64,000 bases of DNA, taken from NCBI GenBank assembly GCA_965214485.1, contig CBDCBW010000015.1:246227-310226 (forward strand), read 5' to 3'. Within the stretch, counting starts at the first letter, position 1. Each line of letters starts with the position of its first letter. Under the pieces are notes generated by a model, which was not told the origin of the DNA, searched no databases, and was given only the letters and a program-made list of their open reading frames with translations. The position numbers and the translations under genes are program-made. The DNA comes from Rhodothermales bacterium (GTDB lineage Bacteria; Bacteroidota; Rhodothermia; Rhodothermales; JANQRZ01). Shown one piece after another: positions 2,315 through 58,898 of the stretch.

Positions 2315-2400
2315 GCTCCGGTCTCCAGTTGGATCGATGCTCACCGCCGAACGCAGGCTGCTTGGCCAGGACCGGGGCGGTGACTGTTCTTTGCACAACT

Positions 2401-2784: not shown

Positions 2785-2791
2785 TGATCGT

Positions 2792-2836: not shown

Positions 2837-3129
2837 TGTCCCGGCAGCACGCGAGGAGCCGGCCGAGATCCCCAGCCCGTCAAGGTTTAGAGATAGCCTC
2901 GCTCGGAATTGCAGCGTCCGATGGGGCTTTTCAGGTACGCCGGTCCCCTGCAACAAATAGGAAAACGCAGGGTTTGACTCGCACCTTGACCGCACCTCAG
3001 CGCTTTATCCCCTCTCTCTTACTGCGCAAAAGAGGTACGCTCGGCAACCTTGCCGCTTCTATCTTTTCCTTCGTGCCGGGCATCTGCTGATGCCTTGCTT
3101 CTGCCCACTCACCCCTCCCAGGTACAGCC

Positions 3130-3396: not shown

Positions 3397-3421
3397 GTGC
3401 CCATTTCGCCGCTGCGGTTCC

Positions 3422-3664
3422 GTGAACGTCCTGCTTTTCCTCCTCGTCGGTTTGCTCGCAGGGATTGCTGCTGAGAAAGCGACGAAGACTTCGATGGGGC
3501 CTCCCGCAAACCTGATCGTCGGCGTTCTTGGTGCTATCCTTGGTGGGTTTCTGTTTGGGCTGCTCGGCCTCGCCGCGCGTGGCCTGCTCGGAAGCCTCAT
3601 CGCGGCCACGGTGGGAGCGCTCCTGCTCCTCTTCCTCGTCGGCCTCGTTTACCGAAAGACCTGA
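3422..3664 (+). CDS. GlsB/YeaQ/YmgE family membrane protein (second copy)
   Basis: LVGLLAG...NLIVGVLGAILGGFLF...AATVGALLLL. Confidence 0.88.
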   Translation: MNVLLFLLVGLLAGIAAEKATKTSMGPPANLIVGVLGAILGGFLFGLLGLAARGLLGSLIAATVGALLLLFLVGLVYRKT

Positions 3665-3742
3665 TTCACGTTGTTAAACCAACAACACCCGTTGGACCGG
3701 AGACCCCGGCCCTTTATCCCCCAGAACCATCCCCTAGTCCCC

Positions 3743-4426
3743 ATGAAACGCTTTCCCCTGTTCACCCTCTGCTCCCTCGTCCTGCTTCTGGCAGCGTGCG
3801 AAGTGGAGACCACCGAAGAGCCGGTCGGCACGATGGACGCCGACATCGAGACCTACCGCGCCGACGTCAATGTTCGCACCGCCGAACTTGACAACGCCAT
3901 TGCAGAACTCGAAGCGAAGGCGGCCAACGCCGACGAAGAGATGCGCGAGGAGTACAACGAGATGATCGGAGAGCTCCGCGAGGAGCGCATGGAGATCGAC
4001 AACGACCTCAACGCCATGCAGGCCGAGACCGCTGAGGAGTTCGACGAGATGAGGACCGAGATGGACGACAGGATTTACGTCCTCGACCGCGACCTCAACC
4101 GCGCCCAGATCGAGATGGCCGAGGATGCAGATGAGCTTCGCATGGCAGCCAACCGTCAGTTCGAGTCGATCGACCGCGAGATGGACCGCCTCGGCAACGA
4201 GGTCGGCGAGGAGTCCCGCGAGGCGATGGCGGACCTCGAGGCGCAGCGCGAAGCGCTGTCGGCTGACCTCGACCGCCTCGGCGACGCCTCGGCCGAGGAG
4301 TTCGGCGAGATGAAGCGCGGCATCGCCGACGGCTTCGACCGCCTCGGCGAGTCGATGGGCAACATCCGCGTGCCGACGGACGTCGACGTGGACATGGACA
4401 TGGACACCGAGCCGATCGACGGCTAG
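3743..4426 (+). CDS. Acidic coiled-coil lipoprotein
   Basis: MKRFPLF...LLLAAC lipobox; helical D/E-rich repeats. Confidence 0.8.
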   Translation: MKRFPLFTLCSLVLLLAACEVETTEEPVGTMDADIETYRADVNVRTAELDNAIAELEAKAANADEEMREEYNEMIGELREERMEIDNDLNAMQAETAEEFDEMRTEMDDRIYVLDRDLNRAQIEMAEDADELRMAANRQFESIDREMDRLGNEVGEESREAMADLEAQREALSADLDRLGDASAEEFGEMKRGIADGFDRLGESMGNIRVPTDVDVDMDMDTEPIDG

Positions 4427-4451
4427 GCGTCCCCTCCCCGACGGAACTAAC

Positions 4452-4485
4452 GAAGGGCCGGAGAGCATCCTCTCCGGCCCTTTTT
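4452..4485 (+). terminator. Rho-independent terminator
   Basis: AAGGGCCGGAGAG / CTCTCCGGCCCTTTTT. Confidence 0.75.
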
Positions 4486-4493
4486 ACGGTACT

Positions 4494-5075
4494 ATGCTTC
4501 TCCACACCCGCCTGACGCTCGGCCTCTGCTCCCTCCTGCTCGCCTGTGGAACCGCGCCTGCGAGCGCGCAGCCGGTCCGGCTCCCCGACCGAGGAGCCGA
4601 GGTGCCGTTCTTCGACGTGGCGGAGCTCGAGCGCGGTGTGCTGCGCGAGGTCAACCGGGTTCGGCGCGAGCAGCGCCGCGCGCCGCTGCTCGCGGACACG
4701 AGCCTCGCCGCCGTCGCGCGCGCGCACAGCCACGCCATGCTCCACCGCCGCTTCTTCGCCCACCGCGACCCGCACGGGCGGCGCGTCGGAGACCGCGCCC
4801 GGCAGGCGGGCTACGCCTTCGAGCGCCTCGGCGAAAACCTCTTCCGGGGGAGGCTCTACGACACCGTCACCACGACCCGGCGCGGCGACGAAGTCCGCAC
4901 GTCGTATTTCTGGTACACGCCCGGCGAGCTAGCCGCGCTGGCCGTCGAGCGCTGGATGGAGAGCCCCGGGCACCGGGAGAACATGCTCTCCGCCGGGTAC
5001 GCCTTCGGCGGCGTCGGCCTCGCCGTTGGGCCGGAGTTCGAGGTGCTGCTCACGCTCAACCTTAGCGCACGCTGA
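4494..5075 (+). CDS. CAP (SCP) domain protein
   Basis: VNRVR, ARAHS..M, FFAH, GENL and WMESPGHRENML motifs. Confidence 0.92.
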   Translation: MLLHTRLTLGLCSLLLACGTAPASAQPVRLPDRGAEVPFFDVAELERGVLREVNRVRREQRRAPLLADTSLAAVARAHSHAMLHRRFFAHRDPHGRRVGDRARQAGYAFERLGENLFRGRLYDTVTTTRRGDEVRTSYFWYTPGELAALAVERWMESPGHRENMLSAGYAFGGVGLAVGPEFEVLLTLNLSAR

Positions 5076-5270
5076 AAGCGCACGGGCGCTGAACGGGAAG
5101 AGGCTGCTGCGCTGGAGCGAGTCTCCAGACGTCAGCTCCCCCCTCCCATTCCCCCCACGCCAAACCACCACACCGTAACCGGATTCTGTATGAGGCCCGT
5201 TTGTGAGGTTGCCGTTCAACGTTACGGTCGGGCTGAAAGCGGCTACGGGCGCTGTTAAACGGAGGCGGTA

Positions 5271-6686
5271 TTAGCCTTCGTTGACTAGGCGGACGCCTTC
5301 GGCGACGAGGGCGTCGGCGCGGTCCTGCGAGGACGCCTCGGCGTAGACGCGGAGCACCGGCTCGGTGCCCGACGGGCGGAACATGAGCCAGCCGTCGCCG
5401 AGGCGGAACTTGAACCCGTCGAGGGTCTCGACGCGCTCGACGGCCTCGCCCGCGACCGCGTTCGGGCGGCGGTTCTCCAGCATGTCGAGGAACGCCTCCT
5501 TCCGGGCCTGCGAGGTGTGGAGGTCGTTCCGGGCGAAGTAGAGCGGCCCGAATTCGTCCTGGATTTCGTCGACGAGTTCGGAAAGCGTCCGCTTGCGCGC
5601 CATCATCATCTCGACGATCGTCAGCCCGATGAAGACCCCGTCGCGCTCGGGGATGTGGCCCTTGACGGCGATCCCGCCGGACTCCTCGCCGCCGACGAGC
5701 ACGTCCCCTTCGATGATCCTCGGTGCGACGTACTTGAACCCGATCTTCATCACCTCGACCGGGAGGCCGTAGGCCTCGCCGATGCGGTCGAGCATGTCTG
5801 TTGTCGAGAACGTGCGGACGATCGTGCCGGTCATCCCCTTCTCCTGCGAGAGGTACTTGGCGAGGAGCGAGAGGATTTTGTGCGAGTCCACAAAGCGCCC
5901 CTCCTCGTCCATCATCCCGATGCGGTCGGCGTCGCCGTCGAAGGCGAGGCCGACGTCGCAGCCCTCTTCGCGGATCACGCGCGAGAGGTAGTGGAGGTTT
6001 TTCTCCATCGGCTCGGGCGGCTGCCCGTGCATCCCGGGGTTGAACTCGTCGTGGACCTCGACGACGTTCTCGCGCCCGAGCAGGTCGGTGACGGTCCCCT
6101 GCCCCGCGCCGTACATCGGGTCGCAGCCGACCTTGAGGCCGGAGGCGCGGATGCCGTCGATGTCGAGCTTGTCCTTGAGGACGTAGCGGTAGGCCTCGCG
6201 GAGGTTGATCCTCTCGACCTGCGCGCCGAGGTCGCCGAGCGGCCGGAGCTCGAAGCCGTCCTCGAGCCGGCCGAGCTCGGCCTCGACCTCGGCGATCATC
6301 GCCGAGTCGGCGGGGGCCCCGAAGTGGGACTTGATCTTGAAGCCGCTGTAGCGCGGCGGGTTGTGGCTGGCCGTGATCACGACCCCGGCGGTGTGCCCGT
6401 ACTCTCGGGTCGCCCAGCTCACGGCGGGCGTCGTCACGAACGAGTCGGCGAGCTGAACGCGGATGCCGAGCGAGGCGAGGACGCGGGCGGTGAACTCGGC
6501 GAAGGCGTCCCCTTGGAAGCGCGCGTCGTAGCCGACGACCGCCGAGGGGGTGCCGTCGCCGATGCCGCTGGCGATGCGCTTGATCCACTGGCCGGTGGCG
6601 CGGGCCACGCGTTCGAGGTTGTCGAAGGTGTAGTCTTCCGCAATGACGGCGCGCCAGCCGTCGGTGCCGAACTTGATGGGGGTCAT
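5271..6686 (-). CDS. Phosphoglucomutase/phosphomannomutase family protein
   Basis: IKFGTDGWR, TASHNP, DGDADR, GEESG and RPSGTEP motifs. Confidence 0.96.
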   Translation of the reverse strand: MTPIKFGTDGWRAVIAEDYTFDNLERVARATGQWIKRIASGIGDGTPSAVVGYDARFQGDAFAEFTARVLASLGIRVQLADSFVTTPAVSWATREYGHTAGVVITASHNPPRYSGFKIKSHFGAPADSAMIAEVEAELGRLEDGFELRPLGDLGAQVERINLREAYRYVLKDKLDIDGIRASGLKVGCDPMYGAGQGTVTDLLGRENVVEVHDEFNPGMHGQPPEPMEKNLHYLSRVIREEGCDVGLAFDGDADRIGMMDEEGRFVDSHKILSLLAKYLSQEKGMTGTIVRTFSTTDMLDRIGEAYGLPVEVMKIGFKYVAPRIIEGDVLVGGEESGGIAVKGHIPERDGVFIGLTIVEMMMARKRTLSELVDEIQDEFGPLYFARNDLHTSQARKEAFLDMLENRRPNAVAGEAVERVETLDGFKFRLGDGWLMFRPSGTEPVLRVYAEASSQDRADALVAEGVRLVNEG

Positions 6687-6823
6687 GGGGAGGGGGAGTG
6701 CCGTGGGTGATGGAAGAGGCTCAAAAGATACGCTGCCGAGCCGAAGCGTCCCGTACCCGGCCTCCCGATTCTACGCGAACAGCCCCACGCCGCCGTGTGT
6801 CCGGCTGCACCCTCCGGCCCGCG

Positions 6824-8621
6824 CGGTTCATCCCCACGCGTGTGGGGAAAGGTGCGACAACATGCTCGCTAGCTTCGACCGCTACGGTTCATCCCCACGC
6901 GTGTGGGGAAAGGGACGTTCCGGCCCCGCGCTTATCGACGACGACCGGTTCATCCCCACGCGTGTGGGGAAAGGTCCGGGTCGTAGTCGATCCCGGCCCG
7001 GCTCTCCGGTTCATCCCCACGCGTGTGGGGAAAGGATCTGTACCGCCGCGTCGCTCGGCCCATCCTTCGGTTCATCCCCACGCGTGTGGGGAAAGGACCG
7101 TGCGGCCGGCGCGCCTCGGCCAGATGAGCGGTTCATCCCCACGCGTGTGGGGAAAGGTGTCCCCTCGCCATGTCCTCATGCCGCGTCCTCGGTTCATCCC
7201 CACGCGTGTGGGGAAAGGTTGCGCGGCTTCGCTGTCCGTCCGGTCCACCGCGGTTCATCCCCACGCGTGTGGGGAAAGGGCGGGGAACTGGAATTGGCAC
7301 TGCGGCATGGCCGGTTCATCCCCACGCGTGTGGGGAAAGGGCATAACCCGCCGCTGGAGCCGACACAGGGCTCGGTTCATCCCCACGCGTGTGGGGAAAG
7401 GAAGGGCTACGGGAGGTTGGGCTTCTTGCGCGCCGGTTCATCCCCACGCGTGTGGGGAAAGGCAGGCGGCCAAGCAGGGTCGGACGCAGGGATACGGTTC
7501 ATCCCCACGCGTGTGGGGAAAGGTCCACGCTATGAGCGTTCTCAACCATCCTGGCCGGTTCATCCCCACGCGTGTGGGGAAAGGTCGGATGTCAACCTCA
7601 CCGTGATCGCGCAAAGCGGTTCATCCCCACGCGTGTGGGGAAAGGTACGACACCGGGCGAAACCACGACGCCATCGACGGTTCATCCCCACGCGTGTGGG
7701 GAAAGGCTGCACGCCGCTGGACCCCGAACCCTTGACGCCGGTTCATCCCCACGCGTGTGGGGAAAGGAGGGCCTCGGCGATGAAGTGGGCGTCCTCGTGC
7801 GGTTCATCCCCACGCGTGTGGGGAAAGGAGCGTCGTAGGTCTTGTCGTACCTCTTTACCCAGGTTCATCCCCACGCGTGTGGGGAAAGGGCGCGGATCGC
7901 GGGCACCGTCGAGCGTGTGCCCGGTTCATCCCCACGCGTGTGGGGAAAGGTCGTTGAACGCTGACGTGCGGTTCTCGTGCTGCGGTTCATCCCCACGCGT
8001 GTGGGGAAAGGAAACCCGTTCAAGATCGGCGAGAGGGCCTCCTCGGTTCATCCCCACGCGTGTGGGGAAAGGCGCCGCCCGTGGATGTACGCCTCGGCCT
8101 TGCGCGGTTCATCCCCACGCGTGTGGGGAAAGGGTCGCCACGCGTACCGTAAGGGCGAGCACGGTCGGTTCATCCCCACGCGTGTGGGGAAAGGTCCTTG
8201 TGCGTGACGGGGTGCAGCGCGTCCACCGGTTCATCCCCACGCGTGTGGGGAAAGGAAGCGGAAGATCGTAGGGGCCTACACCGATGTCGGTTCATCCCCA
8301 CGCGTGTGGGGAAAGGATCCGAGCCTCGATGCGTGCGATGTGCGGTCCCGGTTCATCCCCACGCGTGTGGGGAAAGGTTTGTCCACTCGCGCCTGCACAA
8401 GTTCTACCCCGGTTCATCCCCACGCGTGTGGGGAAAGGGAGGGTCAGAAAGCCCGGCGAGCCGGTAATGGCGGTTCATCCCCACGCGTGTGGGGAAAGGG
8501 GAGGCATGATCCGACTCCGACACCTGGAGCGCGGTTCATCCCCACGCGTGTGGGGAAAGGCACGCCGACAGCACGCTCTACGGTCTCATCTACGGTTCAT
8601 CCCCACGCGTGTGGGGAAAGG
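6824..8621 (-). CRISPR. Type I-E CRISPR array 1: 30 repeats (CCTTTCCCCACACGCGTGGGGATGAACCG on minus strand), 29 spacers of 32 bp
   Basis: Exact 61-bp periodicity from 6824 to 8593; orientation from the ATGAACCG 5' handle and the leader next to cas6e. Confidence 0.99.
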
Positions 8622-49145: not shown

Positions 49146-50513
49146 ATGCTCCGACGGTTCCGCAGCGAGTTCCTCGACATCCGGCGCGACGAGTGGCCGC
49201 TGGCGCTCTCGATGTTCGGGTATTTCTTCCTCGTCATCACCTCGTTCTGGATCCTCAAGCCGATCAAGAAGAGCCTGTTCATCCAGTTCTACGACGAGGC
49301 TGGGTTCTCGCTCGCCGTCGGTGGGCTGTTCCAAATGGAGTTCCTCGCCTCGCAGGCGGAGCTCTTGGCAAAGGTCCTCAACATGGTCGTCGCAGCCGTC
49401 GCGGTGATTGTGTTTACCATCCTCGCGCGGCGGCTCCGGCGGGAGCAGCTCACCTACGTCTTCGCCGGGTTCTTCCTCGCGGCGTTCGCCGCCTACTCGC
49501 TCGTCATCAACGACCCGGGCGACGTGACCGTCTGGAGCTTCTACCTCTTCGGCGACCTGTGGACGACGCTGATGGTGGCGACGTTCTTCGCCTTCCTCAA
49601 CGACAGCGTGACGCCGAGCGCAGCGAAGCGGCTCTACGGCCTCGTCGTCCTCGGCGGCGTTGCGGGCGGGGCGTTCGGGACGACGTTCCTGGCCTTTTAC
49701 ATCGACGACGTCCCGGCCTCGGCGTGGCTGTGGATCTGCTTCGGGATGGCCGTCGCGATCATCGGGCTGGCCTACATCGCCGGGCGGATCGTCCGCCGGA
49801 ATCCGCCGCCCGAAGTGTCGCCCACCGGCGTCGATCCGGGGCGCGGCGAGGAGGCAGCGAAGAAGTCGAACGCGGCGCTCGAAGGCGCGCGGCTCGTTTT
49901 CCGCTCGAAGTACCTCTTGTCGATTGTCGCGATCGTCGGCATCTACGAGATCGTCTCGACGATCCTCGACTTCCAGTTCTCGTCGACGATTGCCCACTAC
50001 CTCGACGGCCCGGCCATCGGCCAGCAGTTCGCGACGGTCTTTGCGATCTCGAACGTGGTCGCGCTCGTCGTCCAGCTTTTGCTAACGACCGTCGTGATGC
50101 GGCGCTTCGGGCTGACGGTGGCGCTGCTCGTCACGCCGTTCGTGATGATCCTCGGCTCCACCGCCTTCCTTGCGCTCCCGATCCTGTGGGTCGGCTCGCT
50201 CCTCAACACCGCCGACAGCGCGTTCGCCTACTCGATCAACCAGTCGGCGCGCGAGGCACTCTACACGCCGACGACGCGCGACGAGAAGTACAAGGCCAAG
50301 GCGTTCATCGACATGTTCGTCCAGCGCTTCGCCAAGTCGATAGCCGTCGGCGTGAGCCTGCTTGTGACCCTCGTCTTCACCGACTTCTCGACGATCCGGT
50401 GGCTGAGTCTAGGGACCCTCGCCCTCGTCGCCGTGTGGGCCTTCGCCGCGCGCTACGCCGGACGGCAGTTCGCCGCGATGGAGGGGCAAGAGGAAGCAAA
50501 GGCCACCGGGTGA
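49146..50513 (+). CDS. Npt1/Npt2 (TLC ATP/ADP translocase-like) transporter
   Basis: ILKPIKKSLF, AKRLYG, DFQF, REALYTP...KYKAKAFIDMFVQR. Confidence 0.9.
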   Translation: MLRRFRSEFLDIRRDEWPLALSMFGYFFLVITSFWILKPIKKSLFIQFYDEAGFSLAVGGLFQMEFLASQAELLAKVLNMVVAAVAVIVFTILARRLRREQLTYVFAGFFLAAFAAYSLVINDPGDVTVWSFYLFGDLWTTLMVATFFAFLNDSVTPSAAKRLYGLVVLGGVAGGAFGTTFLAFYIDDVPASAWLWICFGMAVAIIGLAYIAGRIVRRNPPPEVSPTGVDPGRGEEAAKKSNAALEGARLVFRSKYLLSIVAIVGIYEIVSTILDFQFSSTIAHYLDGPAIGQQFATVFAISNVVALVVQLLLTTVVMRRFGLTVALLVTPFVMILGSTAFLALPILWVGSLLNTADSAFAYSINQSAREALYTPTTRDEKYKAKAFIDMFVQRFAKSIAVGVSLLVTLVFTDFSTIRWLSLGTLALVAVWAFAARYAGRQFAAMEGQEEAKATG

Positions 50514-50599
50514 GTCGGCAACCTTCGCCATTCCCCTTCGTTATTAGTCCCCTTCGTTATTAGGACGATTACGACTCCACGCACCCGAACCGCGCTGTC

Positions 50600-50890
50600 A
50601 TGACTGTCACCGTTGACGAAGCTGGTCGCATCCTTCTCCCGGAGCCTGTGCGCGACCGGCTCGGCCTTACGCCCGGCACGCCCCTCGTGCTCGATGTCCA
50701 CGACACCGGCGACGGTGCATCGACCGTCGCACTTCGCCGCGAAGACGCGACGGCGCTCGCGCAGGACGGTGCCCTCCTCGTCCATAAGGGTCGCCTCACG
50801 GATGCAGACTTTGATGCAAGGGCGTTTCTTCGCATACAGCGTGACGAGCGTGCCCGCAAGCATGGGGGGCTGGGCGGAGACGAGCGGTGA
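50600..50890 (+). CDS. AbrB/MazE-type antitoxin
   Basis: VTVDEAGRILLPEPVRDRLGL.PG. Confidence 0.9.
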   Translation: MTVTVDEAGRILLPEPVRDRLGLTPGTPLVLDVHDTGDGASTVALRREDATALAQDGALLVHKGRLTDADFDARAFLRIQRDERARKHGGLGGDER

Positions 50891-51330
50891 GCGGCCCGCG
50901 CACGCTGCTCGACACGTCCGTCCTCGTCGCTGCGCTCGAAGCCGGTCATCCGCACCACGCGGTCGCCCGTCCGTATCTCGAAGAAGGCCACCGGGAAGAG
51001 CGCACCCTGTTTGTTTCGGCGCACGCGCTCGCCGAAACGTTTGCCGTGCTCACGGTCCTTCCCGTCGCCCCACGCATCACGACGACCGAGGCTCAGCGAC
51101 TCCTGCGGGAAAGTGTGCTCCGAGTGGCCGAGGTCGTCACGCTGGACGCTGCCGACTACGACGCTGCGCTCGAACGCATGGTCGCTTTCGACCTCTTCAG
51201 CGGAGCCGTCTACGATGCCCTTCACGTCCGAGCCGCCGAGAAAGCAGGGGCCGCCGAACTCGTGACCTTCAACGGGCGCGACTTCCGACGGATGCCCCCG
51301 GAGCCACCCTGCCGCCTCGTCGTTCTGTAG
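50887..51330 (+). CDS. PIN-domain (VapC) toxin
   Basis: LLDTSVLVAA, LAETFAVLT, YDALH, LVTFN.RDF. Confidence 0.92.
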   Translation: MSGPRTLLDTSVLVAALEAGHPHHAVARPYLEEGHREERTLFVSAHALAETFAVLTVLPVAPRITTTEAQRLLRESVLRVAEVVTLDAADYDAALERMVAFDLFSGAVYDALHVRAAEKAGAAELVTFNGRDFRRMPPEPPCRLVVL

Positions 51331-51332
51331 CG

Positions 51333-51435
51333 TCCGCTGGCTGAGTCTAGGGACCCTCGCCCTCGTCGCCGTGTGGGCCTTCGCCGCACGCTACGCCGGG
51401 CGGCAATTCGCCCAGATGGAAGCCCGAGAGGGAGC
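51333..51435 (+). repeat. Displaced copy 1 of the Npt gene 3' end
   Basis: 51333-51420 matches 50395-50482 at 82/88. Confidence 0.95.
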
Positions 51436-51458
51436 AGCGGGATAAGCACGCCCAACCA

Positions 51459-51782
51459 TCAGCCTGTCACGCGGAGAACAACGCCCGCGGTAATCGATTC
51501 GATCAACGTCTTCACCTTCGGCACGAGCGGCGCGAGATCCTCGGTACGGTTGCTCCGTGCTTCCAGTAACACGACCCCGATGTCGTACCGGCTGAGGTTT
51601 TGCTGGTGCGGGATGCCCTGATCTGTCGTGATGAGTACGTCGAATGACGCAGACGCCACGGTGAGTAGTTTTCCATTTTTCCTACCGCTCCAGCCCTTCT
51701 CTTGCACGGTTCGTGCCTCGATCTCTGGCGCGAGGAGTCGGACCAGCGCCTTGGGCATGTTCTCGTCTAGCAGCGCTTTCAC
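51459..51782 (-). CDS. DUF5615 PIN-like toxin
   Basis: LLDENMP, GWSGRKNG.LL, LITTDQ...QQN. Confidence 0.9.
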   Translation of the reverse strand: MKALLDENMPKALVRLLAPEIEARTVQEKGWSGRKNGKLLTVASASFDVLITTDQGIPHQQNLSRYDIGVVLLEARSNRTEDLAPLVPKVKTLIESITAGVVLRVTG

Positions 51783-51988
51783 GCCGCCTCTGCTTTCTCC
51801 AGCGTCATCTCCAGATAGCCGACGGCCTGCTTCCGGCTGACCGTGGGGAAGTCACCGAGGAACTTGTCGATAGAGTCCCCTGAGGCAAGATGCTGAACGA
51901 GAATCTCGACGGGAACTCGGGTCCCGGCGAAGACGAGTGCCCCGTTCATAACGTCGGGGTCGCGCGAGATGATCTGCGAGTAGTCCAT
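51779..51988 (-). CDS. DUF433 antitoxin
   Basis: DPDVMNGALVFAGTRVPV...DFPTV. Confidence 0.92.
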   Translation of the reverse strand: MDYSQIISRDPDVMNGALVFAGTRVPVEILVQHLASGDSIDKFLGDFPTVSRKQAVGYLEMTLEKAEAA

Positions 51989-52055
51989 AGCAGCGTGCGT
52001 GTTGATCTAGGCCTGAAACGCGGCTCCGCGCAGCCCGATCCCGGTGGTGGGGCCG

Positions 52056-52129
52056 TCGCCGCGCGCTACGCCGGACGGCAGTTCGCCGCGATGGAGGCGC
52101 GTGAGGAGGCTACGGCTGCGACCAGATAA
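52056..52129 (+). repeat. Displaced copy 2 of the Npt gene 3' end
   Basis: 52056-52097 is identical to 50443-50484 (42 bp). Confidence 0.95.
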
Positions 52130-52152
52130 CAAGGTCGGCTCATGCGCTGGAG

Positions 52153-52551
52153 CTACAACGATGCCTTCCAGAGCGTCGCCACCCCGTAAGATGCGAAGGC
52201 AGCGTCTCGCGTGACAACCGGCATACCCTCCGCTTGGGCCTGCGCGATGATGAGGCGGTCGAAAGGGTCTTTGTGGTGGAACGGGAGGCGCTTTACCCTG
52301 TCGAGGTGGCGCGGCTGCACGGGCAGTACGTTCATCGCGTTGCCTCGGACCTGCCGTTCGACCAACTCCGGGAAAGACAGTGCGAGGTTGAGACGACCGA
52401 GGCTGGCCTTGATCGCCATTTCCCAAAGACTCGCCACGCTAAGGAAGCGCTCGTTGTCCGGATCGAGGATGAGAGCGCGGGCGTGCTCGCTGAGCCGGGC
52501 GTCGCCCCCAACGAACCAGAGAAAGGCGTGCGTGTCGAGGAGAAGCCTCAC
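52153..52551 (-). CDS. PIN-domain (VapC) toxin
   Basis: LLLDTHAFLW, SLWEMAIK, HHKDPFDRLIIAQA. Confidence 0.95.
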   Translation of the reverse strand: MRLLLDTHAFLWFVGGDARLSEHARALILDPDNERFLSVASLWEMAIKASLGRLNLALSFPELVERQVRGNAMNVLPVQPRHLDRVKRLPFHHKDPFDRLIIAQAQAEGMPVVTRDAAFASYGVATLWKASL

Positions 52552-52775
52552 GGCGCGTAAGGTTCGAAGCCATCAATCGGCGCGTCGAAGTCGTCGGACA
52601 TCTCGATCAACCCCCGTGCGCTTCCGAAGACCGGACGCGGCTCGGCGGCCAGTACCAGGGTGAGCCGGAAGGACGCTCCGTCCCCTCGGGCGATCACGAT
52701 GTCCTCTCCCGAGGCGGCTTCCTCGATCAGTTCAGGGAGCCGCTGCTGGGCCTCCTCTAGCTTGACAGTCCGCAT
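52548..52775 (-). CDS. Phd/YefM-type antitoxin
   Basis: EAQQRLPELIE...GEDIVI...FGSARG..MSDDFDAP. Confidence 0.9.
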   Translation of the reverse strand: MRTVKLEEAQQRLPELIEEAASGEDIVIARGDGASFRLTLVLAAEPRPVFGSARGLIEMSDDFDAPIDGFEPYAP

Positions 52776-53033
52776 AGCGTCTTCGGTTGGTCTAGGCCCC
52801 GTCCCGTTAATCCGGTTCCTGGCTCGGCGAGGCCCCTGAAGCGCCCTGCGGCGTTGTCCTCCTCGCCCGATGCTACGGCATCTGGCTCGTCGGACGCCTG
52901 GCCGGGTCCCTCCAGGGTCTCTCGCTCGCCGACGGACCGACCTACGTGACAGAGCCTAGGCGGTGTACGAAGAGAACCTCGCGTGGTTCGTGTGGCAGTC
53001 CGGCATCAGGCATCGACCCAACCCAAGAGAGAC

Positions 53034-53116
53034 TCGCCGTGCGCTACGCCAAACGGCAGTTCGCCGCGATGGAGAAGCGCGAAGAGTCCGCTGCCGGCGT
53101 AGCGAGAAGGGCTTAG
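53034..53116 (+). repeat. Displaced copy 3 of the Npt gene 3' end
   Basis: 53034-53074 matches 50443-50483 at 38/41. Confidence 0.9.
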
Positions 53117-53820
53117 GTAGCGAGAGAAGGGTTCGAGGCCATCGTGGGCGAAAGGCGACGGAGCAGCCCGAGGTCGAGGATGCTGAAGCCGACTTTGGAA
53201 AAGACCGGGAGCACGACGAACAGGAGGGTGTCCGTCCCCTGATCGAGCAGGCCGAGCCCAGACGGGCCGAGCATCCATACCGTCGGGTACCCGATCCAGA
53301 GCACGGTAAGGTAGCCCAGCACGGTCGTATAGACGCCGCCGAGGTCGTCGCCCTGGCTGAAGGCGAGGCGGCGGAGCGGCCCCCACGTGAGCCATAAGAC
53401 CGTGGCAAGCGCGGCGACGCCGATCCAGAAAAAGATGAACCGTGTCGGCCCGGACGCCAGGTCGCCGATAAGCCCGCAGAGGATCATGATCACGTCGGCT
53501 CCGACGAGCGCCCCGATGAGCACGTAGTTCCGCTCCTTGAGCCGGTGCATCGCGGTGAACGAAAGGGCGAGGAGGATGAGCGGCGTCGTTACGATCCAGT
53601 CGGCGTAGCGCGCCCAATAGGTCGTCTGTCCATCGACCTCGACCGTGCCGAGCCCGAGTGACATGGCGAGATATGCGATTCCCGACCAGACCGGGATGAG
53701 GATGGCGACGAGGTATTCCTCGCGGTGGACGCCGCGCGGGTCGCGCGCCCAGACAGCGAAGAGCAGCGCACCGGCCGCCATGCAGGCGACGTAGATCAGG
53801 TGGAGTGTGGGTTCTGACAT
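53113..53820 (-). CDS. Microbial rhodopsin, xenorhodopsin type
   Basis: 7 TM; RYADWIVTTPLILLA (DTA motif); LPVFSKVGFSILD with retinal Lys and Pro at the BR D212 position. Confidence 0.93.
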   Translation of the reverse strand: MSEPTLHLIYVACMAAGALLFAVWARDPRGVHREEYLVAILIPVWSGIAYLAMSLGLGTVEVDGQTTYWARYADWIVTTPLILLALSFTAMHRLKERNYVLIGALVGADVIMILCGLIGDLASGPTRFIFFWIGVAALATVLWLTWGPLRRLAFSQGDDLGGVYTTVLGYLTVLWIGYPTVWMLGPSGLGLLDQGTDTLLFVVLPVFSKVGFSILDLGLLRRLSPTMASNPSLAT

Positions 53821-53917
53821 GAGACGTGAGGAGAAGGGCGGAGCAGAAGGGAACCCCTCCGACCGGTCTTTTCCCCACGGGGTTCCACAGGAACGGGGTT
53901 CCGTAGGACGCTACACG

Positions 53918-53965
53918 CTAGAACAGCCGCCGGGTGCGGATGGTGCCGGGGACGGCGTGAAGTGC
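53918..53965 (-). repeat. Displaced copy of the serA 3' end
   Basis: 41/48 identical to 54676-54723; encodes ALHAVPGTIRTRRLF*. Confidence 0.93.
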
Positions 53966-53968
53966 GAA

Positions 53969-54175
53969 TCAGGCAGACCCGGACGTAGTCACCCGCCGCG
54001 GCTTCCTCTCCGTCACCTCCCAACCGCATGCCTCGGCGCGCTCACGGGCATGTTGGGAAATCGCCCGCACGTCGTTGCCGAAGCGAGCCGCGTACGCCTC
54101 CCGGTTGGCGCGCACTTCGCGCATCACCTCGTCCTCCCAGTCTTCCGGTGTCTCGTCTACCCCGTCAGATCTCAT
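53969..54175 (-). CDS. Small putative antitoxin
   Basis: DEVMREVRANREAYAARFGNDV; overlaps the PIN stop. Confidence 0.75.
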   Translation of the reverse strand: MRSDGVDETPEDWEDEVMREVRANREAYAARFGNDVRAISQHARERAEACGWEVTERKPRRVTTSGSA

Positions 54176-54654
54176 GGTGTCGTCGCGGCTAGTAGCTCCT
54201 CGGGCGAACAGAGCGTCGGTGAGCGATAGCCTCTGGTACGGCCTACCTCGGCTATTTGCTCCCGAAGCACCGGGTTGGCAATGTGCTTGAAGTTCCACGT
54301 CAGCAGATAGTCCGCCCCAGAGACGGTCGCTACGGCGATGTGGTTTGCGTCTGCGGTAGCCTTCTCCGGGAGCGGTACCTCGCGCAAGAGCGCCTCGGCG
54401 AGGGCATCGGACTCGGCAGAAGCGGCTACGACTTCAATGCTGCGCAGTGCTTCGAGTCGAGCCGCGGCAGCGGCCGGGTCGCCCAGCTCGGCTTCGGCCA
54501 GGACCAGCGGGGAGATGAACAGGTCGTAGCGGGAGCGCCGCGTGCTCCACCACCTGAGGGTATGCTGCTGCCGGGCGGCGGCGATCACACGGCCACTCGG
54601 GCGAGCGGTGAGGTAGCTGACGACGGACGTTTCGATGTAGAGCGACGGCTTCAT
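54172..54654 (-). CDS. PIN-domain toxin
   Basis: LYIETSVVSYLTARPS, DANHIAVA, YLLTWNFKHIAN, CSPEEL. Confidence 0.92.
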   Translation of the reverse strand: MKPSLYIETSVVSYLTARPSGRVIAAARQQHTLRWWSTRRSRYDLFISPLVLAEAELGDPAAAAARLEALRSIEVVAASAESDALAEALLREVPLPEKATADANHIAVATVSGADYLLTWNFKHIANPVLREQIAEVGRTRGYRSPTLCSPEELLAATTP

Positions 54655-54675
54655 CGGCTTGAGCTCCCATTCGGG

Positions 54676-55905
54676 TTAAAACAGCCGCCGCGTGCGGATC
54701 GTGCCGGGGACGTCGTGGAGCGCGGCGAGCGCCGCCTCGGAGGAGGCGGTGTCCACGTCGATCACGACGTAGCCGACCTCGCCCTTCGTCTGGAGGTACT
54801 GCCCCGAGATGTTCACCCCCTGCTCCGAGAACACGCGGTTGATTGCGCTCAGCACGCCGGGCCGGTTTTGGTGGACGTGGAGGAGCCGGTGCTGGCCGGG
54901 GTGCGGCGGGAGCGCGACCTCGGGGAAGTTCACCGCCGACAGGGTGCTGCCGTTGTCGCTGTAGCGGACGAGCTTGCCTGCCACCTCGGCCCCGATGTTC
55001 TCCTGCGCCTCGACCGTCGAGCCGCCGATGTGCGGCGTCAGGATCACGTTGTCGAAGCGCCGGAGGGGCGACTCGAACGGGTCATCGTTCGAGCGCGGCT
55101 CGGTGGGGTAGACGTCGAGCGCCGCCCCGCCGAGGTGCCCGCTCTCGAGCGCGTCGGCGAGGGCACCGAGGTCCACGACGGTGCCGCGCGAGGCGTTGAT
55201 GAGGACGGCCCCGGGTTGCATCTGCGCCAGCTCGCCGGGGCCGACCATCCACTTCGTCTCGGGCGTCTCGGGGACGTGCAGCGTCACGATGTCGGCCTCG
55301 GCCAGGAGGTCGTCCAGGCTCGCGCGCGGCGCGGCGTTGCCGAGCGGCAGCTTCGAGCCCGTGTCGTGGAACACGACCTGCATCCCGAGGGCCTCGGCGA
55401 GGACCGAGAGCTGCGAGCCGATGTTGCCGTAGCCCACCACCCCGAGCGTCTTGCCCCGGATTTCGCGGGCGTCCGCCGCGCTCTTGGCCCAGACGCCCCG
55501 GTGCGCGAGCGCGTTCTTGGCCGGCACCCCGCGCAGGAGCAGGATGGCCTCGGCGAGGACGAGCTCGGCGACGGAGCGCGTGTTCGAGAACGGCGCGTTG
55601 AAGACGGGAACCCCCCGCTCCGCCGCCGCGCCGAGGTCGATCTGGTTGGTCCCGATGCAGAAGGCCCCCACCGCGACGAGCTTCTCGGCGGCCTCGAAGA
55701 CGGCCTCCGGTAGCTGGGTCCGCGAGCGGATGCCGAGGAAGTGCACGTCGGCGAGGAGGCCGGGCAGCTCGCCCTCCGGCACGGTCCCCTCGACGCGCTC
55801 GACGGCGGTGTACCCGGCCTCTTCGAAGACCGCGACGGCGTTCGGGTGGATGCCTTCGAGGAGCAGGACGCGGAGACGGTCGCGGGAGAATGAGAGGGCA
55901 GGCAT
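54676..55905 (-). CDS. serA: D-3-phosphoglycerate dehydrogenase
   Basis: GIRSRTQ, FCIGTNQ, NAPFSNTRSVAEL, TPHIGGST; C-terminal ACT domain. Confidence 0.96.
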   Translation of the reverse strand: MPALSFSRDRLRVLLLEGIHPNAVAVFEEAGYTAVERVEGTVPEGELPGLLADVHFLGIRSRTQLPEAVFEAAEKLVAVGAFCIGTNQIDLGAAAERGVPVFNAPFSNTRSVAELVLAEAILLLRGVPAKNALAHRGVWAKSAADAREIRGKTLGVVGYGNIGSQLSVLAEALGMQVVFHDTGSKLPLGNAAPRASLDDLLAEADIVTLHVPETPETKWMVGPGELAQMQPGAVLINASRGTVVDLGALADALESGHLGGAALDVYPTEPRSNDDPFESPLRRFDNVILTPHIGGSTVEAQENIGAEVAGKLVRYSDNGSTLSAVNFPEVALPPHPGQHRLLHVHQNRPGVLSAINRVFSEQGVNISGQYLQTKGEVGYVVIDVDTASSEAALAALHDVPGTIRTRRLF

Positions 55906-56069
55906 CGAACCGATGGGGCGCAGGCGGAGGAGGGCGCAAGATAGCGGTGCGCCCGACAGCGGAAAGCCAACGCCGGACGCCCGACGGCGGAAGGCCGACG
56001 GCGGGAAGCCGACGCTGGGAGGCCGAGGCCGGGCGGCGTTATCTTGCGCGCAGGCTACTTCTCCCGCGT

Positions 56070-58898
56070 ATGCTACGCTCGACCGGTACGATCCTCGACC
56101 TGCGCGTCGGCGAGCGCGCGCTCGTGGGGATGATGTTCGCGTACAACGTCGCGCTGCTCGTCACGCTCTACCTGCTCAAGCCGGCGCGCGACAGCCTGTT
56201 CCTGATCGAGGTCGGGGCGGCGCAGCTCCCGCTGGTCTTCCTCGCGGCGGCGGCGGCGGTGGTGCCGGTGACGGTGCTCTACGGGCGGATCGGGCGGCGG
56301 GTCCGGCTCTCGCGGCTCGTCAACGCGACGACGCTCGTGCTGATCGCCTCGCTGGTCGTGATGCGGTGGGCGGTGGCGCTCGAGGCGGACTGGACGTACT
56401 TCCTGCTCTACGTCTGGGTCTCGATCTACAGCGTGCTGGCGACCTCGCAGTACTGGCTCCTGGCCGGGGCGGTCTTCGACCCGGCGCAGGCCAAGCGCAT
56501 CTTCGCGCTGCTCTCGTTCGGCGCGATCCTCGGGGCGATCGTCGGGGGCGAGCTGACGGGCTACCTCGTCGAGGAGGCCGAGATGCGGACGCGGGACCTG
56601 CTGTGGGTCGCCGTCGGCGTGCTCGGCCTCACGGTGGTGCTCATCAACCTGATCCGGTGGCGGGCGACCGACGGGCGGTACGGGCGGCCCGAGGGGCTGC
56701 GCCGCAACGACACGCCCGCCGAGCGCAGCCCGGTCCTCGGCGTGCTCAAGGCGTCGAAGCACCTCCAGCTCATCACCGCCGTCATCGCGGTGGCGGTGCT
56801 GACGACGGCGCTCGTGGACTTCCAGTTCAAGACGGTCTCCTCGGAGGCCTTCCCGGTGCGGGCCGACCTGACCTCGTTCCTGGGGAGGTTCTACGGGCGC
56901 GTCAGCATCATCGCGCTGGGGCTGCAGTTCTTCCTCGCGCCCCGGATCATCCGGATGCAGGGCGTCGGCGGCGCGCTCCTGCTCCTGCCGACGGCCCTCG
57001 CCGCCGGGTCGATCGCGATGTTCCTCGCGCCGGGCCTGATCGCCGGGACGCTCCTGCGCGGGGCCGACCAGAGCCTCAAGCACTCCATCGACCGGACCGG
57101 GCGCGAGCTGCTCTTCCTGCCGGTCCCGCTGGCGGTGAAGAAGCAGACGAAGGTCTTCATCGACGTCTTCGTGGACCAGGGGATGCAGGGGCTGGCGGGC
57201 CTGCTCCTGCTGGCGGCCCTCGCCCTCGGCGTGACGGTGCAGGGCGTGAGCCTCCTCGTGCTGGCGCTCCTGGTGGTGTGGATCGGCCTGGTGGCGTGGG
57301 CGCGGCAGTCCTACATCCAGGCCTTCCGCGAGGCGCTCCCGCGCCAGAGCGACGAGCCGCTGCCGCCGCCGCCGCCGCCCAGGGCGGAGGACGTCCCGAC
57401 GCTCGTCGGCGCGCTGTCGTCGCCCGACACGGAGGACGTCCTCGACACGCTCGAGACCTTCGACGCGATCGACGCCGAGATTCCGGTGGACGAGGCCTAC
57501 GCGCTGCTCGACCACCGCTCGGCGCGCGTCCGGCGGCGCGTGATCGCGCTCCTGGCGAAGCAGCGCGAGGAGGGCTTCGCCGAGGTGATCGCGGGCTACC
57601 TCCGCGACCGCGACGCCGAGGTCCGGCTCGAGGCCGCGCGCTTCCTCTACCAGGCGCTCGACGGCGAGCACCAAGTGCTCCTGAGGCGCGGCCTCGAGCA
57701 CCCCGACGTCCGCATCCGCGCCGCCGCCGTCGGCGTCATCGCCGAGTCCGGGACGGAGGCCGAGCGCGCGCTCATCACCGACGACATGCTCCGGAGCCTC
57801 CTGGACCACACCGGCCCGGCCCGCGTCGAGACGAACATCGAGGCCATCAAGGCGCTCGGCGCGCTCGACCGGCCCGCGTTCCACCCCGTGCTGCGGGACC
57901 TGCTCGACCGCGACCAGCCGCAGATCGTCCGGGCCGCGGTCCAGGCCGCCGGCAAGGCGGGGCAGCGGCTCTACGTCGGCAAGCTCATCCGGCTCCTCGG
58001 CGAGAAGCCCTACGAGAAGGCCGCGCGCGAGGCGCTCGTCGCCTACGGCGAGCGCATCTTCGGCACGCTCTACGACCACCTCACCGACGAGGAGGTCCCG
58101 GAGCCGGTCCGCCGCAACATCCCCCGCGTGCTCTCCGAGCTCCCGACGCAGTCGGCCGTAGACCTGATGCTGCTGAGCCTGGAGCGCCTGCGCGCGCCGC
58201 TGCTCTACGACGTGGTCAAGGCGCTCAACAAGATCCGCGCGAGCAACCCCGGCCTCCGCTTCAACGAGGCCGCGATCGACGCCGCCGCCCTGGGCGAAAT
58301 CCGCGCCCTGGCCACCGTGCAGGCGGTCCTCTACCACCACCTCAAGGCGAGGGACCCGTTCGCCCGCTCGGCCGGCGCGGGCCGCGTCCGCGAGGCGCTC
58401 TACCACGAGCGCGAGCAGAGCCTCGAGCGCGTCGCCCGGATGCTCGGCCTGCGCTACCCCTCGACGGACATGCACAGCGCCTACCTCGGCCTGACCGAGG
58501 ACGAGACGCTCCGCGCTGCCGCCGCCGAGTTCCTCGACAGCGTCCTCGACTGGGAGCTCAAGCGCTTCCTCGTCCCGCTCCTCGACGCGGCCCCGGACCA
58601 GGGCGACGTGCGCGTGGCCGAGGAGATGGCCGAGCAGTCCTTCCCGACGTGGCAAAGCGCCCTGCGCAACCTCCTCCTCGTCCGCCACCCGCGCCCGCTC
58701 GCCTGCGCCCTCGCCGCCGCCGTCGAGGACCTCCCCGACGCGCTCCCCGACGACCTCGCCGAGATCGCCCTCGCCGCCTGCACCCCGGACCCCTCCGACG
58801 ACCCGCCCGAGATGCACGGCGAGGCCCCGGCCCCGTTCCGCCCCTCGGCCTCGGGCGACGGCGCGACGGTGGCGTCGGAAACAGGGGACGCCGGGTAG
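56070..58898 (+). CDS. Npt1/Npt2-family transporter fused to HEAT repeats
   Basis: LLKPARDSLF, AKRIF, DFQFK, RELLFLP; C-terminal half has DAEVRLEAA and DVRIRAAA repeats. Confidence 0.88.
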   Translation: MLRSTGTILDLRVGERALVGMMFAYNVALLVTLYLLKPARDSLFLIEVGAAQLPLVFLAAAAAVVPVTVLYGRIGRRVRLSRLVNATTLVLIASLVVMRWAVALEADWTYFLLYVWVSIYSVLATSQYWLLAGAVFDPAQAKRIFALLSFGAILGAIVGGELTGYLVEEAEMRTRDLLWVAVGVLGLTVVLINLIRWRATDGRYGRPEGLRRNDTPAERSPVLGVLKASKHLQLITAVIAVAVLTTALVDFQFKTVSSEAFPVRADLTSFLGRFYGRVSIIALGLQFFLAPRIIRMQGVGGALLLLPTALAAGSIAMFLAPGLIAGTLLRGADQSLKHSIDRTGRELLFLPVPLAVKKQTKVFIDVFVDQGMQGLAGLLLLAALALGVTVQGVSLLVLALLVVWIGLVAWARQSYIQAFREALPRQSDEPLPPPPPPRAEDVPTLVGALSSPDTEDVLDTLETFDAIDAEIPVDEAYALLDHRSARVRRRVIALLAKQREEGFAEVIAGYLRDRDAEVRLEAARFLYQALDGEHQVLLRRGLEHPDVRIRAAAVGVIAESGTEAERALITDDMLRSLLDHTGPARVETNIEAIKALGALDRPAFHPVLRDLLDRDQPQIVRAAVQAAGKAGQRLYVGKLIRLLGEKPYEKAAREALVAYGERIFGTLYDHLTDEEVPEPVRRNIPRVLSELPTQSAVDLMLLSLERLRAPLLYDVVKALNKIRASNPGLRFNEAAIDAAALGEIRALATVQAVLYHHLKARDPFARSAGAGRVREALYHEREQSLERVARMLGLRYPSTDMHSAYLGLTEDETLRAAAAEFLDSVLDWELKRFLVPLLDAAPDQGDVRVAEEMAEQSFPTWQSALRNLLLVRHPRPLACALAAAVEDLPDALPDDLAEIALAACTPDPSDDPPEMHGEAPAPFRPSASGDGATVASETGDAG

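Follow-up and report, generated by a model that had tools for sequence, protein, structure and literature searches.

The window analysed here, meaning the whole stretch of 64,000 nucleotides (nt) taken from contig CBDCBW010000015.1 of a Rhodothermales bacterium (assembly GCA_965214485.1, positions 246,227 to 310,226), contains a serA gene whose 3′-end is present in two copies, and these copies bracket a putative toxin–antitoxin (TA) pair. The serA gene (54676..55905, on the minus strand, as are all features named in this paragraph) encodes a D-3-phosphoglycerate dehydrogenase of 409 amino acids (aa) and is the host of the duplicated 3′-end. Its identity follows from the open reading frame (ORF), from profile matches (Pfam 2-Hacid_dh_C at 7e-51 together with ACT, and NCBIfam PRK11790 at 7e-195) and from orthologues in five relatives, which are 84–86% identical at the nt level. 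The last 15 serA codons and the TAA stop (54676..54723) form the working tail, here called T1. A leader of 21 nt (54655..54675), in which GGGAG is read 8 nt before the ATG, leads from the serA stop to the start of a gene for a VapC-like PIN-domain protein of 160 aa (54172..54654), a putative toxin recognised by its homologues, conserved residues and predicted fold. The start of the next ORF overlaps the stop of this gene as ATGA and encodes a partner of 68 aa (53969..54175), a putative antitoxin, judged from the ORF and a predicted complex, that lies 3′ of the toxin. A spacer of 3 nt (53966..53968) separates the partner stop from the displaced copy, T2 (53918..53965), an orphan serA tail of 15 codons and TAG. 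Both tails were delimited by pairwise comparison, and the two ORFs between them are referred to as the cassette. Below, G000 denotes the genome under study, G001 to G009 its numbered relatives, and L numbers loci.

The two serA tails and the cassette between them

T1 and T2 are identical at 41 of 48 nt, and T2 lies 758 nt downstream of the serA end on the minus strand, with an insert of 710 nt between the tails that holds two ORFs only. The seven mismatches fall at tail positions 3, 6, 11, 24, 33, 45 and 48 and are scattered across all 48 nt, the longest exact run being 12 nt. Six of them are at third codon positions, and the seventh is at a second one, where GAC becomes GCC and Asp is replaced by Ala. 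The tail peptides read ALHDVPGTIRTRRLF and ALHAVPGTIRTRRLF, followed by the stops TAA and TAG. Downstream the likeness stops at the stop codon, and upstream it stops at the 48th nt or perhaps one base further. No long ORF ends in T2, and at about 0.3 match per site we estimate the chance of such a 41/48 match at about 1e-15 per offset. A first-pass annotation of this DNA had described the repeat, its third-position differences and the pair of TAA and TAG stops, and had stated that only a PIN toxin and a small partner lie between the copies, with the displaced tail 3 nt past the partner stop. All of these particulars are borne out by the comparison, the PIN assignment now coming from homologues and fold.

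The same arrangement is present, with 0 differences, in an independent Logan contig of 1243 nt that covers positions 53776–55018 and hence T2, the cassette and T1. One sequencing run holds the locus; it comes from a mixed community, and its contigs drop rare variants, a limit within which no empty-site or excision joint at serA was seen in them. Joints that are listed in the run have short sides at 90% likeness and are taken to be from other organisms.

As the leader of 21 nt leaves no room for a terminator or a promoter, the cassette is probably read through from serA and co-transcribed with it. A consensus promoter scan of positions 52900–56100 gave 0 promoters, and a terminator scan of the same region gave 2 terminator-like sites where 1.2 were expected.

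A Pfam scan of the 160-aa protein gave no match at E≤0.01, with PIN_3 appearing only at E=0.096. At least 7305 homologues at E≤1e-5 were found among 8000 candidates scored, some of which bear PF01850 or the NCBI name ‘VapC family toxin’, and an alignment of 31 sequences shows E8, E54, D102 and N121 to be invariant. The AlphaFold2 model has a mean pLDDT of 93.4; its best Foldseek match is VapC20 (5wz4_A, E=3e-5, TM 0.60/0.72), and the matches include VapC20, VapC and VapBC structures with TM of 0.5–0.72. The homologues together with the modelled fold confirm that the protein is of the PIN/VapC type. In scans of metagenomes and genomes with the PIN protein no match exceeded 58% identity, so that these yielded no near-identical cassette in its context; closer relatives, at 87–89% identity, exist according to a protein search.

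The 68-aa partner belongs to no Pfam or NCBIfam family and has no recognised DNA-binding domain. A word search gave nine homologues of it, and a small ORF of like pattern lies 3′ of the PIN gene in 98 of 160 loci from other taxa. In the predicted complex of the PIN protein and the partner the ipSAE score is 0.91, against 0.30 for the best of three controls, and the three runs of the complex model agree in at least 97% of contacts with a partner pLDDT of at least 79. The mark used for ipSAE is reached by 58 of 80 solved complexes and by 2 of 110 mismatched pairs, counts that hold only roughly here because our own alignments were used; moreover, the score may be due in part to a likeness to VapBC complexes, which have already been solved. 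With these qualifications, the partner is predicted to bind the PIN protein.

The pair thus resembles VapBC in the PIN fold with the conserved acidic residues E8, E54 and D102, in the small partner predicted to wrap the toxin, in the two-gene operon with overlapping stop and start, and in its wide and patchy spread. It differs from VapBC in that the toxin gene comes first, with the partner downstream rather than an antitoxin upstream, in that the partner is without a recognised DNA-binding domain or family, and in that the toxin has a C-terminal extension of 30 residues and falls below the Pfam PIN thresholds. We would therefore describe the pair as a toxin-first, VapC-like module with an undescribed partner, and its toxicity as presumed from these likenesses.

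Duplicated gene ends across the genome

Two scans of the genome were made for duplicated gene ends. The first combined a k-mer search for local direct repeats with an ORF filter based on G+C content at third codon positions (GC3; 2733 ORFs), and gave 62 repeat pairs in which the upstream copy includes the stop codon of a gene that is 80 aa or longer; 54 of the 62 have an in-register stop in the downstream copy as well. The second scan, which was more sensitive, set the 12 C-terminal residues of each of these genes against all pre-stop peptides within 8 kb, accepting matches of at least 7/12. It gave 89 same-strand and 5 opposite-strand matches downstream, and 51 and 3, respectively, upstream. 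Forty of the 89 downstream same-strand matches are the ends of other called genes, mostly paralogues with a secretion-sorting domain of the type IX secretion system (T9SS), and the other 49 are orphans. Leaving out weak, very short and sorting-domain-like tails reduces the orphans to 37 pairs, and leaving out also one uncalled tandem PIN paralogue (L215) and one relic called as a gene, with one pair kept per host, leads to 32 host genes that have orphan tail copies downstream on the same strand. The array at the Npt-type transporter gene beside serA, described below, is outside this number because its extreme C-termini differ, and 32 is for that reason a floor. One orphan tail had passed the ORF filter as a ‘gene’ of 89 aa.

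Across the 37 pairs, the median identity is 91% (75–98%), the median tail length 78 nt (30–399) and the median cargo 1678 nt (499–7917). The tails of different host genes are unrelated to one another, and no conserved motif was seen at the cassette–tail junctions when 41 pairs were inspected by eye. A palindromic element of about 30 nt at L211:14-47 (G000 C15, about 356701–356734) and at more than 25 other sites, often adjoining gene ends, has matches on both strands in G000 and G002 at 91–100% identity and is REP-like or terminator-like.

It is hardly credible that these duplicates come from chance, ordinary tandem paralogy or the mis-assembly of mixed strains. The genome is in 18 contigs, the one run is of a mixed community, and T9SS sorting-domain tails do recur by true paralogy, as the many matches to other called gene ends illustrate; against this stand the same-strand to opposite-strand ratio of 89:5, the fact that T2 ends no long ORF, the independent contig that spans the serA locus, and the recurrence of the same architecture in the relative G003 and in other phyla.

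The differences between the two copies lie predominantly at synonymous positions. For the 32 host genes we count 222 differences, which are distributed as 45/25/152 over codon positions 1/2/3 (68% third), and for the 37 pairs the distribution is 50/28/186 (70% third). As a baseline we compared the last 20 codons of window genes with their orthologues in relatives, and here the distribution is 73/55/195 (60% third). Every one of the 28 pairs with at least three differences has a third-position share above one third, 58 of 918 codons are changed in the 32 host genes, and 7 of the 37 pairs have at least four nt differences with zero amino-acid change. The expectation of the first-pass annotation that divergence would be synonymous rather than random throughout the genome is thus upheld. 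The stop codons behave likewise, being the same in 14 of 32 host genes and 17 of 37 pairs, as compared with 16 of 33 orthologue comparisons; put the other way, they differ in 18 of 32 host-gene pairs and in 17 of 33 orthologue comparisons. Homology extends no more than 3 nt past the stop in 32 of 37 pairs and no more than 4 nt in 23 of 33 orthologue comparisons, and high-scoring segment pairs between species likewise break at intergenic regions. The displaced copies show no drift towards AT (79 GC>AT and 80 AT>GC changes). By our own estimate a tail that drifted after duplication in situ would have about 50% of its differences at third positions, and the share observed for the 32 host genes is above this (binomial 2e-8). 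Taken together, the codon pattern suggests that the tail copies differ as working alleles of different species do, unlike a gene and its drifting pseudo-copy.

The clearest case lies outside the window, at an H+-pyrophosphatase gene (G000 C15:356688-370011) that is followed by an array with four tail copies. Three of these tails encode an identical 32-aa peptide at 85–93% nt identity, and neighbouring tails are 85–88% alike. One displaced copy, Ta, matches the working tail of the species G004 at 99% identity over 82 nt, and that of its own genome at only 93%. Since a displaced copy can be this close to the working tail of another species, the tails behave as once-functional alleles, which agrees with what the first-pass annotation had proposed for both serA tails. 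Relics with indels are also found at this gene, two older ones in relatives and a distal one in this genome. Within the body of the H+-pyrophosphatase gene, identity to all four relatives dips to 75–85% at positions 300–525 of the last 1500 nt, which suggests a mosaic ancestry.

The divergence of the copies bears most directly on the possibility that the cassette inserted in situ with a long target duplication. A repair event at a break would then have copied 48 nt of serA, T1 and T2 would have been the same at first, and their later differences would come from allelic overwriting of the working gene and from gene conversion. We regard this as unlikely but as a serious contender. Insertion with long target duplication is an established mode for restriction–modification (RM) units, for which Nobusato and colleagues are reportedly cited from 2000. 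In the account of Furuta, Abe & Kobayashi (2010, PMC2853133), RM units that lack a mobility gene are flanked by direct repeats of 30–420 bp, one of the repeats overlaps 15 bp of a gene 3′-end, the species concerned are mostly competent, and the mechanism is given as unknown; a 2013 review by the same group assigns this mode to RM systems only (PMC3874152). Such repeats around RM units speak for an in-situ origin here too, as do the copies at L206 and L199, which are 94–98% alike within a genome and closer to each other than to orthologues, and the occurrence in several species of duplicates of the same gene tails. The serA locus also has the dimensions of the RM cases, with a repeat longer than 30 bp (48 nt, 41/48 identical) and an insert shorter than 20 kb (710 nt) without a mobility gene, and in both systems a small unit without a mobility gene, addictive in the RM cases and probably so here, is found in many phyla and is flanked by direct repeats derived from the insertion site. 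A further expectation from the RM cases is that the copies resemble each other more than they resemble the sequence of the empty site, with which L206 agrees and which the H+-pyrophosphatase array contradicts.

On the other hand, an in-situ duplicate is expected to change at all codon positions and to decay towards AT, which the third-position excess, the absence of AT bias and the seven silent pairs contradict. The differing stop codons are a further difficulty, as recombination ending inside T1 cannot easily swap the last base, and in the H+-pyrophosphatase array neighbouring tails are less alike than one of them is to the allele of another species. The serA locus differs from RM insertions in its cargo, a PIN protein and a small partner instead of R and M genes, and the present duplications as a group differ in that the repeat ends at the host stop, that the copies differ as alleles of different species would, unlike a fresh duplication, and that they form arrays of up to four tails and affect about 30 genes in one genome.

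The cargo between the tails consists mostly of TA and defence genes. Among the cargo that could be named are ParE with a ribbon–helix–helix (RHH) partner, DUF4160/DUF2442, MNT/HepT, BrnT, a SocA/Panacea protein, UPF0175, Fic and six PIN pairs, including FitA-PIN and DUF2281-PIN, and the cassettes at Npt add two PIN pairs and a DUF433/DUF5615 pair. The named cargo further comprises two AAA_21 ATPases, a GmrSD nuclease, IS200 and IS1595 transposases and a secreted subtilase. An association of duplicated tails with TA or accessory cargo, as the first-pass annotation had anticipated, is therefore evident. The orientation of nameable cassettes is about 15 on the same strand to 7 on the opposite strand, which is a trend only. 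At L214 (G000 C17:280559-280562) the host stop and the start of BrnT share an ATGA overlap, which is present in the working tail (GTATGA) and absent from the displaced one (GTGTAG); this suggests that T1 and cargo are a long-standing unit there; the overlap also implies translational coupling of BrnT to a housekeeping gene. The L213 cargo (G000 C16:49792-51667) has four tandem ORFs of 63–71 aa with the N-terminal pattern MKPY..P.LT.YGDV...TATLGDPFTGD; the one tested has no Pfam family, and the set resembles precursor peptides. At L219 (G000 C15:156605-164793) a cargo of 7.9 kb lies between two tail copies, and part of it is enclosed by two identical transposase-like ORFs of 260 aa that are inverted with respect to each other; the tails of two convergent genes are duplicated across this same interval.

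The genome has 5 matches to tyrosine recombinases (PF00589), none inside or beside a cargo, and no match to serine recombinases (PF00239), and the ORFs of the serA insert include neither a recombinase nor a transposase. Because the tails are unrelated and the cargo lacks recombinases, one attachment (att) site cannot explain the duplicates. The proposal of the first-pass annotation that the mechanism is tied to gene 3′-ends in general is supported by the 32 unrelated tails, with the qualification that in other phyla the duplicated flanks are often intergenic.

A remnant of a site-specific element, or one mobilised in trans, with the repeats as the attL and attR of an integrase island at the serA 3′-end and the cassette as a cis-mobilisable element (CIME), is accordingly a very improbable source of the locus. 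There are parallels. Prophages 21 and e14, which sit in icd, carry their own copy of the end of the target gene, and CIMEs are cargo-only units. Synonymous differences between the two ends are typical of such att pairs. Here, too, a duplicated gene end flanks the insert, newer units push older ones outward and cargo-only units occur. Known elements rebuild the 3′-end of their target and stack in tandem with the older ones pushed outward, as in the preprint description of tycheposons, which are integrase-driven, accumulate in tandem at tRNA genes and leave incomplete tRNAs behind (bioRxiv 10.1101/2020.12.28.424599). Site-specific islands, however, are characterised by an integrase and a fixed att site, mostly in tRNA genes, whereas here dozens of unrelated tails of protein genes are involved and no recombinase accompanies them, the few tyrosine-recombinase matches lying apart from all cargo. 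Nor is there an identical core, given the exact run of 12 nt at most in serA, the repeat length is variable, and the 21 nt and 3 nt of non-coding DNA that flank the two genes leave no room for arm sites.

Three further candidates were tried and rejected: a diversity-generating retroelement, as the differences are not at adenines and there is no reverse transcriptase; a transposon target-site duplication, as the repeats are too long, variable and diverged; and an integron gene cassette, as only 3 nt separate the last stop from T2 and there is no PF00589 integrase in the region of the window that was scanned.

Relatives, other phyla and the neighbouring Npt array

Each of six relatives has a single serA tail, but none of them offers a clean empty site, as other genes lie between serA and Npt in each. 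T1 is identical to the tails of relatives at 38–42 of 48 nt and T2 at 33–42 of 48. At three of the seven variable sites, including the TAG stop, T2 has the same state as the same-genus relatives G001 and G002, and T1 at those three sites matches another genus; T2 has in addition two private G/C-to-A/T changes. This comparison, which the first-pass annotation had advised for deciding which tail is ancestral, gives a hint that T2 is the native, genus-type serA tail, and it goes no further than a hint. Over the gene, serA of this genome is 84.7–85.1% identical to same-genus relatives and 83.6–85.7% identical to another genus, i.e., about equally distant from both. For the same-genus relative G003 no close serA match is among the matches listed.

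At other loci the relatives present several states. The site is empty, with a single tail, in 4/4 relatives at L207, and L204 gives single tail matches only. Elsewhere the same gene is followed by another cassette and by an orphan tail that goes with it, as in G004 and G002 at L209, in G004 at L206 and in G003 at L199 and L201. At L206 G003 has the same cassette and both tails, with 79% identity over the whole unit and on a contig of 3.5 Mb, and the FitA-PIN cassette is common to G000, G002 and G004 at 76%.

Homologues of the PIN cassette are found in cyanobacteria, Chloroflexota, Planctomycetota, Verrucomicrobiota, Acidobacteriota and Betaproteobacteria. Counting direct repeats of at least 30 nt and at least 80% identity within 1.5 kb, we find flanking repeats at 16 of 59 genome loci with enough flank, compared with 7 of 102 shifted controls, and at 4 of 33 metagenome loci, compared with 1 of 23 controls. 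Pooled, the figures are 20 of 92 loci (repeats of 30–263 nt) and 8 of 125 shifted controls (Fisher p=0.0017). The repeats are gene tails with the stop kept at L077, L092, L087 and L032, and the others are intergenic or unresolved.

The neighbour of serA in the window, an Npt-type transporter gene (49146..50513, plus strand) that is convergent with serA and was recognised from its ORF and tail comparison, is the host of an array of three cassettes (49146–53116). Its working tail (50451–50513, plus strand) is followed by a cargo of a MazE/AbrB-type antitoxin and a PIN toxin (50600..51330, plus strand; PF04014, PF01850), and 2 nt past the PIN stop by displaced tail copy 2 (51333..51445, plus strand). 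A second cargo, the DUF433 and DUF5615 pair (Pfam), lies in the opposite orientation (51459..51988, minus strand) before displaced tail copy 3 (52046..52129, plus strand), and a third, a Phd-like antitoxin and a PIN toxin (Pfam), is again opposed (52153..52775, minus strand) and precedes displaced tail copy 4 (53034..53116, plus strand), the oldest and most diverged of the four, whose stop overlaps the stop of the rhodopsin gene. The tails were again identified by comparison. The array thus comprises three different TA cassettes and, besides the working tail, three displaced ones; cassette 1 is oriented with Npt and cassettes 2 and 3 lie against it, and the extreme C-termini of the four tails vary in length and sequence. 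As the first-pass annotation had observed, the serA and Npt tails have no sequence in common, their best local alignment scoring 10 of 48. Adjoining the third Npt cassette on its distal side are about 60 nt (52900–52967) of a dispersed short repeat, which recurs at C13:155720-155786, C4:53827-53887, C15:505527-505589 and C1:5937-5996 with 97–100% identity.

The convergent Npt–serA pair is kept in G001, G002, G008 and G009, and G001 has its own duplicate of the Npt tail. In all four relatives the interval between the two genes holds other genes, including, by our reading of the ORFs, a ParE/RHH pair and a Doc-like fragment. The ParE/RHH pair in the interval of G002 (L022:3343-3842) is closely like the pair at G000 C1:50413-50912 (L196), which follows a different G000 gene with its own tail duplicate, so that the same cassette has different hosts in the two species.

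The rhodopsin gene (53113..53820, minus strand; PF01036 at 1e-58) is the next gene after T2 and is the distal boundary common to the serA insertion and the Npt array, placed between the oldest Npt tail and T2. The first-pass annotation had suggested looking for strains in which serA directly adjoins rhodopsin; this found no counterpart, as a rhodopsin match adjoins serA in 0 of 40 relatives searched. Rhodopsin is missing from the Npt–serA interval in all relatives that keep that gene pair, and G003 has an 84%-identical rhodopsin protein in an unrelated context, with no direct repeats around its gene. It may be that the rhodopsin gene, too, was inserted into this hotspot, at an earlier time.

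The route of insertion and its relation to known systems

The anatomy of the locus, the allele-like divergence of the tails, the absence of recombinases and the sharing of tails and cassettes across species are together best accounted for by displacement of the resident gene end by an incoming one, and we hold it about an even chance that the serA locus is one instance of such additive 3′-end displacement. On this proposal DNA of a diverged relative arrived in which the serA end was directly joined to the compact two-gene PIN toxin–antitoxin cassette. The left join would have been made by homologous recombination anchored in the conserved body of serA and the right join at or inside the resident serA tail, either as an illegitimate join (homology-facilitated illegitimate recombination, HFIR) or as a short homologous crossover in an orphan tail that already trailed the donor cassette. 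The incoming T1 would then complete serA, and the resident T2 would be displaced behind the cassette, to remain as a non-coding fossil on the native downstream DNA. No dedicated recombinase would be required, and the cassette would probably be retained by addiction. If the event recurred at one gene, cassettes would pile up together with tails, which is the picture at Npt and at the H+-pyrophosphatase gene, and occasional gene conversion between tail copies would blur their divergence. A trailing orphan tail that served as the right-hand homology would also explain the tight, inherited junction and the recurrence at the same genes. That T1 is the incomer, that it arrived together with the cassette and that it came by this route are steps we read from the sequence pattern and that may each be mistaken.

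Several observations weigh against displacement, or at least against its simplest form. The sample holds no same-species genome with an empty site that would fix the incomer tail, the serA breakpoint and the donor, and sliding-window identity along serA and the H+-pyrophosphatase gene reveals no clear donor tract next to T1 (relatives are 84–91% identical). The serA pair offers a statistic of seven differences only (6/7 at third positions, P about 0.007 under equal thirds), and the genome-wide counts depend on gene calls from our own GC3-based ORF filter, where the ‘orphan’ at L215 proved to be the end of an uncalled PIN paralogue and others may hide. At L206 the identity between the two copies is 94% in G000 and 97% in G003 but 87–91% from one genome to the other, which would fit in-situ duplication or gene conversion better than a fresh allelic import; since copies there are closer within a genome than across species, one of these processes appears also to play a part. 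In the cassettes that were read, moreover, 2–33 nt lie between the 3′-end of the cargo operon and a tail boundary. So tight a junction is not expected of a random illegitimate join and needs either an inherited cassette–tail unit or selection for compact inserts. HFIR is also rare in experiments (PMC5361080).

Tight and inherited cassette–tail junctions would follow readily if the cassette moved by excision and integration through the homologous recombination of the host, a crossover between T1 and T2 yielding a circle of one tail and the cassette that, once transferred to a new host, enters the tail of the orthologous gene by a Campbell-type single crossover and leaves two chimeric tails. Such a cycle would in addition account for a length of duplication that varies by cassette (30–399 nt), for the growth of arrays on the gene-proximal side and for the lack of a recombinase. 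We nevertheless find it improbable. The tails are short (median 78 nt) and only 75–98% identical, and a crossover of the RecA type needs far longer exact homology than the 12 nt that serA offers. The contigs of the one run, in which rare variants are dropped, contain neither an excised junction nor an empty site, and the first formation of a unit of tail and cassette is left unexplained. To mechanisms outside those considered in this report we allow a slight chance.

The kind of event that we propose is already known, and displacement is closest to what happens at polymorphic toxins. For displaced, orphan arrays of the Rhs and contact-dependent inhibition (CDI) type, Jackson and colleagues are reportedly the source, from 2009. 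The arrays of effector and immunity genes that belong to type VI secretion systems (T6SS), and the tips of Rhs proteins, have been explained by HFIR in a model comparable to ours (Kirchberger et al., 2017, PMC5361080). In these systems, as here, modules recombine through a conserved upstream region and displace the resident 3′ part, ordered fossil arrays are left and no integrase is involved. What is expected of a displacement array is also what we see, namely that the fragment found distal to the newer module is a homologue of the upstream gene's end and that the arrays are ordered by age. In Rhs, CDI and T6SS loci, however, what is displaced is a variable toxic tip together with its immunity gene, and the host gene is in itself the polymorphic weapon, whereas the hosts here are housekeeping genes, the tail is a conserved stretch of 10–130 codons that serves no function by itself, and the cargo has no relation to the host gene. 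A search of literature listings brought up no case of duplicated gene ends at classical TA modules, and one may nevertheless be in print; supplements, which may hold closer cases, lay outside the search. The new form of the event is the cargo of TA and defence genes, the tails that end at the stop, the divergence of allelic grade, the arrays and the number of about 30 loci in one genome.

According to the review literature, chromosomal TA and small defence modules spread by horizontal transfer, but their acquisition and fixation are not understood. The duplicated gene ends provide about 30 natural experiments in one genome, in which each scar is a displaced gene end with the codon signature of a once-working allele, and this signature separates a copy made on the spot from an end imported from a relative. 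In arrays the tails give a relative order of age and can point to donor lineages, as Ta does with its likeness to G004. The pattern links the literatures on RM long target duplication, on Rhs/T6SS displacement arrays and on TA mobility, and we point out that in annotation orphan tails are easily taken for small ORFs or gene fragments. A more general proposition, that TA and defence cassettes have a recombinase-free life cycle in many phyla, in which a piece of the conserved gene behind which a cassette last sat would travel with it as a portable homology arm and let the recombination machinery of a new host add the cassette behind the orthologous gene, is possible, and we advance it tentatively, as something we would not yet call likely. 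If it is true, orphan tails would be dated, allele-resolved fossils of the history of donors and recipients, and the movement of chromosomal TA modules without mobile elements would be readable from sequence alone.

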